This document shows, piece by piece, positions 3 through 5,850 of a stretch of DNA of 5,850 nucleotides. Where the stretch lies: the IMG/VR virus record IMGVR_UViG_2698536449_000009; one strand, given 5' to 3'. How positions within the stretch are numbered: position 1 is the stretch's first letter; each line of letters starts with the position of its first letter. Made by a program: the position numbers and the translations under genes. Under the pieces are notes generated by a model, which did no database searches, was not told the origin of the DNA, and worked only from the letters and a program-made list of their open reading frames with translations. This DNA comes from a virus. Lineage: Duplodnaviria > Heunggongvirae > Uroviricota > Caudoviricetes.

Positions 3-419
3 CAGTATCCGGATGGTAAGCCGCCGGTATGGGCAAAGTGTACGAAAGGTGTGTATCCGTCTTACTGGGAAGAATGGAAAAAAGTCAGGGAGGTGGTAAA
101 AGTTGCCTGTCCGGAGTGTGGCGGAAAGGGTGAGGTTTCCACCGCCTGTAAGGATTGCCGTGGGCGTGGTGTCGCCATTCATCGTGAAGAGTCGGTAAAA
201 CGTGGTATGCCTGTTATCAGAGACTGCCAGCGTTGTGGTGGTCGTGGCTATGAAAGACTACCATCAACGGAGGCATTTAATGCTATATGCGAGGTGACAA
301 ACCAGATAACACGCGCGTCATGGGAAAAAACAGTTAAGAAATTCTATGATGCGCTGGTGACTCGGTTTGATATTGAAGAAGCATGGGCTGAGCGGCAGTT
401 AAAAAAGGTAACTAGGTAA
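3..419 (+). CDS. Q: Antitermination protein Q, lambda family, C-terminal part (5' end lies upstream of the window)
   Basis: Frame is open from position 3 to TAA at 417-419. Translation has paired CxxC zinc-finger motifs (CPECGGKG...CKDCRGRG...CQRCGGRGY) and the C-terminal pattern TVKxxYDALV...VTR, which matches my recollection of lambda Q. Followed immediately by a PR'-like promoter and a terminator. Confidence 0.8.
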   Translation, partial: QYPDGKPPVWAKCTKGVYPSYWEEWKKVREVVKVACPECGGKGEVSTACKDCRGRGVAIHREESVKRGMPVIRDCQRCGGRGYERLPSTEAFNAICEVTNQITRASWEKTVKKFYDALVTRFDIEEAWAERQLKKVTR

Positions 420-2550: not shown

Positions 2551-2687
2551 TATTCATTCTTCCAGATTCCTTCCGGCAGAGCCTTATACTGAAATATACC
2601 TGGCTCAGGATATTGTTGAAAATATTTTATGTTTGTCAAAAATAAAAGTTCTGTTAAGTATTGATTGAGTGTTTGTTATACGGTCTA

Positions 2688-3014
2688 ATGGTTTTTTCAG
2701 CATTAAATATTTATCATTCATATGGTGTGGGTAGAGTGAATATTGATGAGGCGTCGGGGTGTTTCATCCTTAGGCAGCGTATTGATATAGTCAATGCAGC
2801 ACGAGCAAAGGCCTTCAGCCGTTTGACAGTTTTGTTCTGTACTCCTGATCGTCTTTCGGGAAGAGACGTTATTATTCTGAATAGTGATGCTATACAGAGG
2901 GTTTGCGATGAGTTCATGGTTGCTAATTCAGAATTATTTGCTCTTGTTCAGGAGTACAACAGAATAGCCAGGACCTGTGGTATGGATGAACTTCGGATTA
3001 CTCATCTGGGGTAG
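2688..3014 (+). CDS. Hypothetical cargo (moron) protein, about 108 aa from ATG 2688; the frame is open from 2661
   Basis: AT-rich ORF directly downstream of the tRNAs and on the same strand, in the position Stx phages use for stxAB. By my count 6 of 12 Arg codons are AGA/AGG and 3 Ile codons are ATA. No clear Shine-Dalgarno, so the start is uncertain (ATG 2688 or GTG 2736). No recognisable family. Confidence 0.45.
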   Translation: MVFSALNIYHSYGVGRVNIDEASGCFILRQRIDIVNAARAKAFSRLTVLFCTPDRLSGRDVIILNSDAIQRVCDEFMVANSELFALVQEYNRIARTCGMDELRITHLG

Positions 3015-3066
3015 ATACATATCTGGATTATCACCTGTTACGGTAAAAAGTGATTGCTTACTGTTT

Positions 3067-3096
3067 TTGTGAATGGCATTGCAGCAGCCGGATAAT
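3067..3096 (+). promoter_or_regulatory. Candidate sigma70 promoter (-35 TTGTGA 3067-3072, 18-bp spacer, -10 GATAAT 3091-3096)
   Basis: Hexamers read directly. Predicted start near 3103 at the beginning of the 307-bp repeat, giving a roughly 325-nt transcript to the terminator at 3407-3429. Speculative. Confidence 0.25.
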
Positions 3097-3118
3097 GTCA
3101 GTGCTGGCTGACGGTGTG

Positions 3119-3425
3119 CTGGTGGCGGGTGTGGTGGTTGTTGCTTTCCCGTTGCTGAAAAAGAAAACGCCAGACTGTTAGCCGGGTATCAGTTAGCGGG
3201 AGAAATTTTTAAATACTTCACAATTCAGGCGGTTGACTGTTGTCTGGTTTGCGGGGAGTTTGTTAAAAGAAACTGGCATGGTGAATCCCCCTGTGCGGAG
3301 GGGCAATCAGCGAGTAGGTATATGGGATAATCGCGGATTCAGGTGCTGGTACTGAATTCACCGGGAGGCACCCGGCATCATGCAATGGCACATAGCGCCA
3401 CTCTCCAGCCCTCTCCGGAGGGGCT
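3119..3425 (+). repeat. 307-bp direct repeat, copy 1 (structured, ends in an intrinsic terminator)
   Basis: About 99% identical to 4754-5061 (one substitution, one 1-bp indel). Contains several hairpins and no ORF with a start codon spanning it. Confidence 0.9.
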
Positions 3426-3429
3426 TTTC
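3407..3429 (+). terminator. Intrinsic terminator at the end of repeat copy 1
   Basis: AGCCCTC - TCCG - GAGGGGCT (one-base bulge) followed by TTTTC. Confidence 0.6.
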
Positions 3430-3657
3430 TGTGCCGGATACATCACAGTTTCTGGAACCTTAGGTACTACAGTATCAGTCAGGGTGCTATATTTTCAGAT
3501 GTGATGAAAGCCTGTCAGCAGGCAGGGCGTATCGGAAATGACCCAGTAGAGAAAACGTTGACTCAGATACCGGTGCTGAGTTACCGGGAAACCGGCATCA
3601 CATGACCGCTATCCTGAGGTGTACTGGCAATAGCGGACACTACCATTTGTTCTTTTT

Positions 3658-4476
3658 TTAAGCAGCCATCTGATGATATTTTTCCCTGAAGGCTGCCGGG
3701 GAGATATTCCCCAGACGAGAGTGACGACGCTGACGATTGTAGAAAATCTCAATGTATTCCCGTATTACTGAGATGGCTTCATCCCGGTTATTAAAACGAT
3801 AGTGGCTCAGGCTCTCATTTTTCAGCGTTCCCCAGAAGCTTTCCATCGGAGCGTTGTCGTAACAGTTACCTTTACGCGACATTGATGTTTTCAGACCAGA
3901 CTGCTCCTGTATGACCCGGTAATCGTATGCGCAGTACTGTGAACCTCGATCAGAGTGGTGGATTAGCCCGGCAGGTGGGCGCTGGCTCCTGAGCGCCATA
4001 AACAGGGCTTTACCTGTCAGCTCTTTTGTCATGCGCTCTCCCATGGCGTAGCCGACAATTTCGCACGTATAAACATCTTTGATGCCAGCGAGGTACAACC
4101 ATCCCTCCTGTGTGGCAACATACGTCAGGTCCGCCACCCAGACCTGATTTGGTGCTGTAGGAGCGAACGTCTGGTTCAGCAGATTTGGCGCAACTGGCAG
4201 ATTGTGGTTCGAGTTCGTAGTCGCTCTGAACTTGCGTTTCTGCTTACAGCGTAGCCTTAGCTCCTTACGAAGACGTGCCAGTCGGTCACGACCAACGATG
4301 ATGCCATTCTCTGCCAGCTCCGTCTGGAGCCGCCGGGTTCCATATGTTTCGCGAGTGCGGATATGTGCCACCTTAATCTCCAGTTTTAGCCGCTCATCAC
4401 TTTGTTTTCTGTCTGAGGGTTCATGCTGTACCCAGTTGTAATAACCGCTCCTGGATACACCAAATACCTGACACAT
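3658..4476 (-). CDS. IS3-family transposase OrfB (DDE integrase domain); in vivo made as an OrfAB fusion by -1 frameshift
   Basis: 272-aa ORF starting MCQVFGVSRSGYYNW and containing HSDRGSQY and SMSRKGNCYDNAPMESF motifs. The orfB frame stays open upstream to the A7 slippery site. Confidence 0.9.
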   Translation of the reverse strand: MCQVFGVSRSGYYNWVQHEPSDRKQSDERLKLEIKVAHIRTRETYGTRRLQTELAENGIIVGRDRLARLRKELRLRCKQKRKFRATTNSNHNLPVAPNLLNQTFAPTAPNQVWVADLTYVATQEGWLYLAGIKDVYTCEIVGYAMGERMTKELTGKALFMALRSQRPPAGLIHHSDRGSQYCAYDYRVIQEQSGLKTSMSRKGNCYDNAPMESFWGTLKNESLSHYRFNNRDEAISVIREYIEIFYNRQRRHSRLGNISPAAFREKYHQMAA

Positions 4477-4511
4477 CGCTTCAATGGGAAATTGTTGTCG
4501 CCATTGTTCGA

Positions 4512-4753
4512 TTAACGCGTATTTTTCAGCGACTCCTGTGCAAAATACGCTGTTGCTTTTTTTAATATATCTCGCTCAAGGCGAGCTTCATTTAACGCCT
4601 TACGCAGTTGCAGAATTTCAGATTCCAGTTCAGCCACCGTGCGGGAACCAGGAGTACCGAGCCCTTTTCTGGCGGCGGTAACCCATTGTCCTAAAGTGCC
4701 TTCAGGAAGAGATAATCGGGAAGCGCCTTCACTGATCGAAAGTTGATTTTCAA
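4512..4753 (-). pseudogene. IS600-like orfA, 5'-truncated (no start codon, N-terminal DNA-binding region lost)
   Basis: orfA frame ends at TAA (forward 4512-4514). Upstream the frame runs into the 307-bp repeat without a plausible start codon. Confidence 0.75.
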
Positions 4754-5061
4754 CTGGTGGCGGGTGTGGTGGTTGTTGCTTTCCCGTTGCTGAAAAAGAA
4801 AACGCCAGACTGTTAGCCGGGTATCAGTTAGCGGGAGAAATTTTTAAATACTTCACAATTCAGGCGGTTGACTGTTGTCTGGTTTGCGGGGAGTTTGTTA
4901 AAAGAAACTGGCATGGTGAATCCCCCTGTGCGGAGGGGCAATCAGCGAGTAGGTATATGGGATAATCGCGGATTCAGGTGCTGGTACTGAATTCACCGGG
5001 AGGCACCCGGCACCATGCAATGGCACATAGCGCCACTCTCCAGCCCCTCTCCGGAGGGGCT
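4754..5061 (+). repeat. 307-bp direct repeat, copy 2
   Basis: Begins exactly where IS identity stops (4753/4754) and ends at the terminator hairpin. Confidence 0.9.
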
Positions 5062-5069
5062 GTTTATAT
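5042..5069 (+). terminator. Terminator hairpin at the end of repeat copy 2; possibly bidirectional
   Basis: Perfect 8-bp stem AGCCCCTC / GAGGGGCT with loop TCCG, followed by GTTTATATT. The stop of the convergent minus-strand gene is about 30 nt away on the other side. Confidence 0.5.
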
Positions 5070-5096
5070 TGATTTTGTCAGATGTGAGTAAACTCC

Positions 5097-5432
5097 TTAT
5101 GGACTTTGTTGTTTTAGTCCATAAGGACATATTTGCAGAGTGCAACGGTTATTAAAGCATTCATTCAATACGTTATCTGTATTTGTAGGGCATTCCTGGC
5201 TATTTTTGATTGAATTCCAGAATGTTTTATTGAATGGTACTACGTTGTAAATGGTTACAGGTAGCACTTTGTTATTGAGCATGATGCCTGTGTGAGTCAG
5301 TGTAAATATACTTTCAGGAGGTAAGAAAGCATCCGATTGATACCAGATTATTAATTTTATTTTACTCCATATGACTGAAAAAGATATTCCGCATGATGGC
5401 TGGATAACTGTATCAATCACAATCCACTTCAT
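5097..5432 (-). CDS. Hypothetical protein (111 aa), AT-rich orphan moron gene convergent to the late operon
   Basis: Strong Shine-Dalgarno on the minus strand (AAGGAAACTAA then ATG). Five cysteines, Asn/Ile/Lys-rich. About 260 bp of AT-rich sequence upstream with candidate -10 TATACT (forward 5473-5478). No family recognised. Confidence 0.55.
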
Positions 5433-5692
5433 TTAGTTTCCTTGTTTATGCCTTGCTGGTGATGTTCTGAAAAGTATAAATGATATTTTTGAATGTAAAC
5501 CATAGAGCAGAATTATTTTTCTGATGTTGTTTATTGTTTATTTAAATGCAGGGTGGTTTATATCTCGTCTTGTAGTTTATCCATGCATATCTGCTTGATA
5601 ATCAGGTTTTTATTTAAGGTATGGTTTTGTGTTTTTTCTGTATTACATGTCAGGTATTTTAAAGAATTATTTTTCAGATGGTGGAAAGAACC

Positions 5693-5819
5693 ATGGCATT
5701 TAAACACTATGATGTTGTCAGGGCGGCGCCGCCGTCAGATCTTGCGGAAAAGCTGACACATAAACTGAAAGAGGGCTGGCAGCCGTTTGGTAGTCCGGTG
5801 GCCATAACCCCTTATACCC
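5693..5819 (+). pseudogene. 5' part of a small conserved lambdoid late-region gene, interrupted by IS insertion at 5820
   Basis: ATG at 5693 encodes MAFKHYDVVRAAPPSDLAEKLTHKLKEGWQPFGSPVAITPYT, then the IS end TGAGGTG... begins. I recall this N-terminus from small proteins just upstream of holin genes in E. coli prophages (DUF1737-like, from memory only). Confidence 0.55.
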
Positions 5820-5850
5820 TGAGGTGTACTGGCAATAGCGGACACTACCA
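5820..5850 (-). mobile_element. Terminal 31 bp of a second IS600-like copy, same orientation as the first; continues beyond the window
   Basis: Identical to 3615-3645 (TGAGGTGTACTGGCAATAGCGGACACTACCA). Confidence 0.75.

Follow-up and report, generated by a model that had tools for sequence, protein, structure and literature searches.

A duplicated element in a lambdoid prophage matches the STnc100 family of Hfq-binding small RNAs and contains a covarying pseudoknot

The 307-bp direct repeat in a 5,850-nt stretch of viral DNA (IMG/VR record IMGVR_UViG_2698536449_000009, Caudoviricetes; the whole stretch is here called the window) very probably carries, in each of its two copies, a complete gene for STnc100, an Hfq-binding sRNA family of lambdoid prophages. 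Both copies were matched by the Rfam model RF02076 over model positions 1-206, well above its gathering score of 47 bits (Table 1), and in an Rfam scan of the window no family except STnc100 matched the regions of the repeat copies. G-U pairs are common in the helices of an 80-core alignment, which indicates that the STnc100 RNA is read from the + strand. A first-pass annotation, made from the sequence alone, had suggested an unannotated regulatory RNA. A regulatory sRNA gene is indeed present, but it belongs to a known family, which is long catalogued and widely dispersed, and the finding is real but ordinary. Annotation based on Rfam and Infernal would label the element automatically, and the window itself is of little import. 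What our sequence comparisons appear to add to the curated family is only a covarying pseudoknot, together with a modular layout of conserved domain and variable linker.

Table 1. Coordinates of the features of the window. Helices P1 to P5 and the pseudoknot are given for copy 1.
Feature	Position	Strand	Evidence or remark
Antiterminator Q	51-419		PF03589
Promoter-proximal terminator	after Q		
Small ORF, then DNA methyltransferase	992-2050 (methyltransferase)		
tRNA-Ile2(CAT) and tRNA-Arg, then unannotated ORF	between methyltransferase and DUF3927		
DUF3927 family small membrane-protein gene, 43 aa	3050-3181	+	Pfam PF13064, E=1.7e-27
Repeat copy 1	3119-3425	+	DUF3927 3' end, spacer with predicted promoter, STnc100 sRNA gene
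Predicted sRNA promoter, copy 1	3240-3269	+	putative -35 TTGTCT 3240-3245; putative extended -10 TGtTAAAAG 3261-3269
Rfam RF02076 STnc100, copy 1	3247-3436	+	122.5 bits, E=2.3e-27
Conserved structured core, copy 1	3276-3383	+	covariation in 80 homologues and permutation tests
P1, closing stem	3276-3283/3376-3383	+	covaries
P2 hairpin	3288-3292/3299-3303	+	invariant, uninformative
Pseudoknot	3306-3312 with 3344-3350	+	AUCAGCG, just after P2, with UGCUGGU in the P4 loop; covaries
P4 hairpin	3335-3342/3352-3359	+	covaries
P5 hairpin	3361-3365/3371-3375	+	invariant, uninformative
Variable 3' linker, putative seed region	3384-3406 (copy 2: 5019-5040)	+	identity comparison among family members
Intrinsic terminator, copy 1	3407-3433 (hairpin 3407-3425, T-rich tail)	+	stem one C short relative to copy 2 and other genomes
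ATCC 11775-type prophage flank downstream of copy 1	3426-3614	+	100% identity to 348 E. coli records as far as the point of IS insertion
IS600 (IS3 family), truncated	3615-4753	-	100% identity to S. sonnei IS600; rve and HTH_Tnp_1 domains
IS600 orfB	3658-4476	-	
Repeat copy 2	4754-5061	+	5'-truncated DUF3927 remnant without promoter, plus intact STnc100 gene
Predicted sRNA promoter, copy 2 equivalent	4875-4904	+	by equivalence with copy 1
Rfam RF02076 STnc100, copy 2	4882-5071	+	132.4 bits, E=6.4e-30
Conserved structured core, copy 2	4911-5018	+	same helices can form
Intrinsic terminator, copy 2	5041-5070 (hairpin 5041-5062)	+	perfect 9-bp stem, then TTTATATT
iraM-like gene	5097-5432	-	annotated as anti-adapter protein IraM at homologous loci; no Pfam match
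DUF1737 gene, interrupted by IS600 end	5690-		Pfam match
Second IS600 end (IRR), within DUF1737 gene	5820-5850	-	36-nt repeat with 3610-3645

The two repeat copies had been described as about 99% identical, and a self-comparison of the window agrees, giving about 99.3% identity overall with 293 nt identical. They differ by one substitution (3378 T in copy 1, 5013 C in copy 2) and by a 1-nt indel, which is one C in the 5' strand of the terminator stem, missing in copy 1. Both changes are private to copy 1, where they turn a G-C pair of P1 into G-U and weaken the terminator stem; copy 2, unlike copy 1, has the common E. coli sequence. The repeat had also been treated as one structured element with no ORF with a start codon spanning it. 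This view does not hold for the whole of its length, since the repeat is a composite. Its first 63 nt are the 3' end of the DUF3927 gene, which is annotated at the homologous loci of E. coli 042, 300709 and E2348/69. They are followed by about 95 nt of spacer containing a conserved predicted promoter, and the last 155 nt or so are the sRNA gene. The 307-bp repeat is not a functional unit, and its boundaries reflect a rearrangement.

The window represents late-region DNA of a lambdoid prophage, and the element lies in the 'moron' region that separates Q from the lysis genes. The gene order is Q, terminator, small ORF, methyltransferase, tRNAs, ORF, DUF3927, STnc100 copy 1, a rearranged segment, the iraM-like gene and DUF1737. 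The loci of E. coli 042 and 300709 have a matching layout: the same element is found behind DUF3927, in a single copy and with no IS, and is followed by holin and lysozyme genes. In prophages of this type the iraM-like gene is the native downstream neighbour of STnc100. The 370-nt region under study was matched in 2,718 of 5,426 complete E. coli genomes, at a median of 2 and a maximum of 12 places per genome, and the only RefSeq labels at homologous loci are 'DUF3927 family protein' and, beneath the element on the minus strand, a pseudo 'hypothetical protein'. Homologues were collected by searching for two core motifs in one genome per species and in IMG/VR, and this gave matches in over 120 viral contigs and in Enterobacterales of at least 25 genera. 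IpeX is a DLP12 prophage sRNA of E. coli K-12, and is likewise an RNA of the interval between Q and the lysis genes. Homology to IpeX was rejected, as DLP12 of MG1655 (571000-579000) contains no STnc100 match at the gathering threshold.

Covariation was analysed in a structure-blind MAFFT alignment of 80 diverse cores. For all helices together, including the pseudoknot, 89.5% of cells are paired, compared with 79.9% in shuffled and 41-49% in slid controls, and the covariation score of 0.309 compares with a maximum of 0.071 in the controls. P1 and P4 each contain five pairs that have changed on both sides, with 90% and 97% of their cells paired, respectively. P2 and P5 served as the search motifs, and their invariance is in part an outcome of this choice. 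There is no support for the inner U-A pair of the Rfam P2: in the 80 cores it is paired in 45 and unpaired in 35, with no compensation. All of the conserved helices can form in both copies in the window. The folding energy of the single sequence is unremarkable when compared with shuffles (z = -0.44), so the description of the element as structured cannot be made from the window sequence alone.

The structural case originally made for the element was based on nested inverted repeats, namely GGTGAAT/ATTCACC, CCCCT/AGGGG and CCGGG/CCCGG. These are all present where they were reported (3280-3286 with 3356-3362, 3288-3303 and 3361-3375). Covariation among homologues, which had been proposed as the check, is found for P1, P4 and the pseudoknot, but not for GGTGAAT/ATTCACC. 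This pairing was rejected as a conserved helix, as no compensatory change is seen among the 80 homologues, 60 of which cannot form its sixth pair. It competes with the covarying helices P1 and P4, and could represent an alternative conformer.

In the supported fold, P1 closes a junction of P2, P4 and P5, and the strand next to P2 makes a tertiary pairing with the loop of P4. When this pseudoknot is analysed on its own, 69.6% of cells are paired, compared with 52% in shuffled and 26-45% in slid controls, and the covariation score is 0.423 against at most 0.111 in the controls. In a permutation test of self against non-self partners, the observed value was not equalled in any of 10,000 permutations, and the helices were of 43 distinct types. 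The pseudoknot is absent from the RF02076 consensus structure and from the cited papers on the STnc100 family. Across at least 25 genera the loops hardly vary in sequence, and it is common for 2-6 units to be arrayed in tandem. The junction with its tertiary pairing, the near-invariant loops and the tandem arrays suggest a further reading, which we regard as possible though on the doubtful side: that the 5' domain of about 105 nt is a pseudoknotted module with a function of its own, reused across the prophages of Enterobacterales with interchangeable 3' seed linkers. Such a function could be protein or ligand binding, protection from nucleases, or a role in conflict between phage and host.

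Several members of the family have been studied experimentally. EcOnc27, from prophage Sp5 of E. coli O157 Sakai, was crosslinked to Hfq, with a CRAC peak at 1268411-1268490 (PMC4104026), and gives northern bands of about 235 and 247 nt, of which the longer is destabilised in the absence of Hfq (PMC4104026 supplement). The STnc100 match in Sp5 (207.7 bits) lies just behind stx2B, and contains both the EcOnc27 CRAC peak and the northern probe site. The Hfq peak also includes sequence upstream of P1. EcOnc27 is the same as sRNA103 of EDL933, whose overexpression raises fimZ and espA transcripts (PMC7873438, PMC12711010). In EDL933 all 11 STnc100 copies are transcribed, one of them verified by northern blot (PMC5331693).

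RF02076, EcOnc27 and sRNA103 resemble the window copies in the full-length match to the model and in the core motifs GGUGAAUCCCCCUGUGCGGAGGGGC and CACCGGGAGGCACCCGGCACC. EcOnc27 and the window are also alike in genomic position, downstream of pR', tRNAs and moron and upstream of the lysis genes, and in the intrinsic terminator at the end. They differ in the sequence of the 3' linker and in the upstream gene, which is stx2B in Sp5 and DUF3927 in the window; and the window has two copies, 1.6 kb apart, with an IS600 fragment between them. A further difference is at the 3' end, where in Sp5 the terminator of STnc100 is directly adjoined by AsxR, convergent on the other strand. AsxR and AgvB (RF02703 and RF02702), the anti-sRNAs of the prophage 'sRNA dyads' (Tree et al. 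2014), occupy the same prophage compartment, but the window contains no match to either family at E<=1 (the Sakai positive control gave 88 bits). Its terminators are backed instead by the iraM-like gene or by IS600.

PasD1 and PasD2 of EPEC are Hfq-dependent RNAs of 172-173 nt with targets identified by RIL-seq (PMC8550237), and a 2026 preprint argues that they are homologous to STnc100. Our comparison confirms that they are related: PasD2 and PasD1 score 41.4 and 37.7 bits against the STnc100 model, both lie behind DUF3927 genes, and RNA-seq places the 5' ends of the two transcripts at model position ~30, the base with which P1 begins. PasD1/PasD2 (EPEC E2348/69; homologue EcOnc13 in Sakai Sp3) share with the window the DUF3927 gene upstream and the location in a lambdoid late region, as well as the order of promoter (predicted in the window), structured 5' domain, linker and terminator and a match, albeit weak, to the STnc100 covariance model. 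They are unlike the window copies in scoring below the STnc100 gathering threshold and in having degenerate P2 and P5 motifs. The core found in the window is of the canonical STnc100 type and not of the degenerate PasD type.

The first-pass annotation had placed a candidate promoter for copy 1 at 3067-3096 (TTGTGA/GATAAT). This proposal is not supported, as the sequence is a 9-of-12 match that is not part of the repeat and falls within the DUF3927 ORF, and 7 promoter-like matches were found in this region, compared with 6.0 +/- 2.1 expected in shuffles. A different promoter is predicted, immediately upstream of the core (Table 1). In an alignment of both window copies, Sp5 EcOnc27, the second ATCC 11775 unit and PasD1/2, it aligns with the TTGACT-17-TTAAAA found upstream of the PasD1/2 RNA-seq 5' end. 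A TAnnnT box at one fixed distance from the core is present in 41% of 111 unique upstream sequences, drawn from many genera, against a background of about 2%. By consensus the predicted promoter is weak: its -10 has no final T, and it was not called by a consensus scan. On the basis of the PasD 5' ends and the extended -10, transcription would start at about 3276 (4911 in copy 2), yielding a transcript of about 155 nt. The 235 and 247 nt bands of EcOnc27 suggest that there may also be a longer form, beginning near the stop codon of DUF3927. In certain contexts, then, STnc100 may be a longer species, perhaps derived from a 3' UTR, and what looks like a -10 in the conserved A-rich box could instead be an ARN site for Hfq.

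Downstream of the core the sequences diverge sharply. Identity among family members is 0.28 in the linker, compared with 0.90 in the adjacent core, and in the family units this hypervariable segment has a median length of 26 nt. In PasD, both the seed UGUGAG and the RIL-seq chimeras lie in the segment that corresponds to the linker of the window, which would make the linker the likely seed region in the window copies as well. The PasD seed itself is not present there (no TGTGAG in 3384-3430 or 5019-5065). The element had been said to end in an intrinsic terminator, and this is correct for both copies, each of which has a hairpin with a T-rich tail. Among 123 unique units, 69% have a terminator-like hairpin within 110 nt, compared with 7% in shuffles, and the median predicted RNA length in the family is 168 nt.

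By analogy with these homologues, the STnc100 RNA of the window copies would bind Hfq and may act in trans, with the variable linker pairing with mRNAs and the conserved 5' domain perhaps serving as a scaffold or stabiliser. The STnc100 terminator probably also ends DUF3927 transcription in the lysogen. An unlikely alternative is that the upstream moron (DUF3927, or stx2B in Sp5) has the element as its structured 3' UTR and terminator, any sRNA being processed from the moron mRNA or from the Q-antiterminated late transcript. Its role would then be mainly in cis, stabilising the mRNA 3' end and insulating the lysis genes from moron transcription. In E. coli the element does lie directly behind DUF3927 or stx2B; the EcOnc27 bands are longer than core plus terminator, with an Hfq peak that starts upstream of P1; and the predicted promoter is weak. 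However, the PasD 5' end is at the start of P1, behind TTGACT-17-TTAAAA, and the -10-like box is fixed in position across genera. A dependence on the upstream gene also fits poorly with the arrays of 2-6 units, which have no intervening ORF, with units that lie directly behind tRNA genes, and with copy 2 in the window, which has lost the start and promoter of DUF3927 while the unit remains intact. In addition, STnc100 promoter regions show RpoD/RpoN binding patterns in ChIP-exo data from Salmonella LT2 (Figure 6D of PMC10794520).

The conserved block might alternatively act mainly as DNA, either as a portable patch of homology or a boundary for recombination in mosaic lambdoid phages, or be a degraded coding remnant, with any RNA structure being incidental. 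The block lies at a mosaic boundary, where the prophage types cease to be homologous at the terminator stem and each type has its own flank on either side; RefSeq has a minus-strand pseudo 'hypothetical protein' across it; and its single-sequence folding energy is unexceptional. This explanation is nevertheless very improbable and is largely refuted by compensatory changes, which have preserved P1, P4 and the pseudoknot in 25 or more genera. The frequent G-U pairs make the structure specific to one strand, no ORF is conserved, and the homologues have demonstrated transcripts and Hfq binding. An sRNA gene of the STnc100 family is the reading that we retain for both copies.

The first-pass annotation noted that copy 2 starts where the IS600-like sequence breaks off, and tied the duplication to a rearrangement of the IS. 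Both observations are upheld: a truncated IS600 lies between the copies, its identity ends exactly at 4753, and copy 2 begins at 4754. The IS600 has lost its last 125 bp, including IRL and the start of orfA, and the joint at 4753/4754 connects the interior of IS600 to the interior of DUF3927 with no microhomology. The sequences downstream of the two copies are of different types. Copy 1 is followed by a flank (3426-3614) that in the ATCC 11775-type prophage forms the spacer between two natural STnc100 units, and the flank from 5062 onward, with the iraM-like gene and DUF1737, is of the 042/300709 type. There is also a second 'restart' scar, where the 3' end of Q and its terminator recur at 2126-2267, right after a tRNA fragment that ends at 2125, and no IS is present at this scar. 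From the different flanks, the truncated IS600, the 4753/4754 joint and the second scar, it is concluded that the window is a patchwork of two related prophages, in which STnc100 is a shared homology block and the 307-bp repeat a by-product. In the course of events that we envisage, the two prophages would have been joined by homologous exchange within or next to STnc100, IS600 would have inserted, and an illegitimate joint would have formed between the interior of IS600 (4753) and the middle of DUF3927 (4754). A simple tandem duplication is ruled out, because the downstream flanks of the copies differ. Of the complete E. coli genomes, none covers as much as 80% of the window, and the 4753/4754 junction was not found in GTDB species representatives or in IMG/VR. 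As the IS600 is 100% identical to copies from S. sonnei, the DNA probably comes from a Shigella or from an E. coli rich in IS600.

Target duplications made by IS3-family elements are 3-4 bp long. The repeat flanks the IS600 fragment and copy 2 begins at the break in the IS, which might suggest that the 307-bp duplication is a by-product of IS600 transposition, as a target-site duplication or a flanking repeat made by the transposase. We give this explanation almost no credence. At 307 bp the repeat is far longer than such target duplications; the IS is truncated by 125 bp at the joint, which therefore does not coincide with an IS end; copy 1 lies 189 bp away from the intact end of the IS, with foreign prophage flank in between; the downstream flanks of the copies differ; and a second, independent scar, at 2125/2126, is free of IS. 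The prophage patchwork remains our explanation, and the duplication can be regarded as a rearrangement scar in an IS600-rich genome.

STnc100 units also occur in natural tandem arrays: ATCC 11775 has two units, and certain viral contigs have as many as 5-6. In these arrays the units are diverged and spaced by about 250-470 nt, whereas the window copies are 99% identical, include coding sequence and have a truncated IS between them, which indicates that the duplication is a recent rearrangement and not an array. A third STnc100-like match in the window (3475-3663, 21.8 bits) was rejected as a unit: this region is the inter-unit spacer of the ATCC 11775 type, in which a true second unit would fall beyond the IS insertion point.

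The covarying pseudoknot, the hypervariable linker, which in PasD holds the seed, and the widespread tandem arrays could guide experiments on EcOnc27 and PasD. One machine-learning study placed SNPs in the Sp5 copy of STnc100, behind stx2B, among its strongest predictors of HUS (PMC12711010).

The STnc100 RNA contains a covarying pseudoknot, which is formed in copy 1 between the strand 3' of the P2 hairpin (3306-3312) and the loop of the P4 hairpin (3344-3350), and which is lacking in the Rfam RF02076 consensus structure. The sequence GGUGA at 3280-3284 has two alternative partners, at 3358-3362 or 3376-3379, both of which are conserved, contain CACC, and lie on either side of the P5 hairpin. 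Only the distal pairing, namely the closing stem P1, is lengthened by covarying pairs. These alternative pairings may constitute a conformational switch. In many E. coli genomes, the RefSeq/PGAP annotation of the strand opposite STnc100 includes a partial pseudo 'hypothetical protein'. Given the covariation of the STnc100 RNA, this minus-strand protein is probably an annotation artefact. Coordinates are collected in the table.

In the E. coli variant of STnc100 found in the window, the sequence of the P2 hairpin (CCCTGTGCGGAGGGGC) is 75% similar to that of the terminator hairpin (CCCTCTCCGGAGGGGC), a likeness that is not general in the STnc100 family. A palindrome, TGACAG-N4-CTGTCA, is located immediately 5' of the STnc100 promoter in Sakai Sp5 (L168, approximately 1905-1925) and in unit 2 of the ATCC 11775-type prophage (L002); the window copies carry a degenerate form of it (TGACTGTTGTCTGGTT, 3234-3249). 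The palindrome may act as an operator or, within the longer transcript, fold as an RNA hairpin.

Natural arrays of STnc100 occur in prophages of several Enterobacterales genera, and consist of 2-6 units at a spacing of approximately 250-470 nt. The units carry individual variable linkers, and isrI (RF01392) and tRNA genes are at times interspersed among the units.

Features located in the window and in comparison loci (L numbers) of other genomes
Feature	Location	Coordinates	Remarks
Pseudo 'hypothetical protein'	L001	5206-5331	minus strand; homologous to window ~3266-3391
Pseudo 'hypothetical protein'	L002	3846-3971	as for L001
Pseudo 'hypothetical protein'	L003	4559-4684	as for L001
Tandem STnc100 units	L002	3827-4017, 4295-4504	
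Tandem STnc100 units	L013, L021, L025, L035, L038, L064, L077, L114		
Pseudoknot equivalent	window, copy 2	4941-4947 with 4979-4985	
P2/terminator hairpin likeness	window, copy 1	3289-3308, 3409-3428	
P2/terminator hairpin likeness	window, copy 2	4924-4943, 5045-5064	
Second IS600 end	window	5820-5850	same orientation as first IS600; breaks DUF1737 gene (5690-5819)

The window contains a second rearrangement scar, seen as repeats of 383-532 at 2126-2267 and of 2051-2125 at 2258-2332. The segment 2126-2267 is a recurrence, 1.74 kb downstream, of the 3' end of the late antiterminator gene Q and the pR'-proximal terminator, and is directly preceded by a tRNA-Ile2 fragment cut off at its CAT anticodon, with 3 nt of microhomology between this fragment and Q at the joint (GCAT|GGGC). 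The left copy has a Q-hyp-methylase-tRNA arrangement and the right copy a Q-tRNA arrangement; in consequence, the region of the short, promoter-proximal terminated transcript is present twice.

The tRNA gene at 2298-2373 is called tRNA-Met(CAT) by ARAGORN; Sakai Sp5 carries an identical gene under the annotation ileZ2, a tRNA-Ile with a lysidine-modified CAT anticodon. Between tRNA-Arg and the DUF3927 gene lies a candidate moron ORF of 117 codons (2661-3014), which gave no match in a Pfam search and for which neither 042 nor 300709 has a CDS annotated at the equivalent place.

The two IS600 copies lie within 2.2 kb and are each identical to Shigella copies, which suggests a Shigella-like host, rich in IS.
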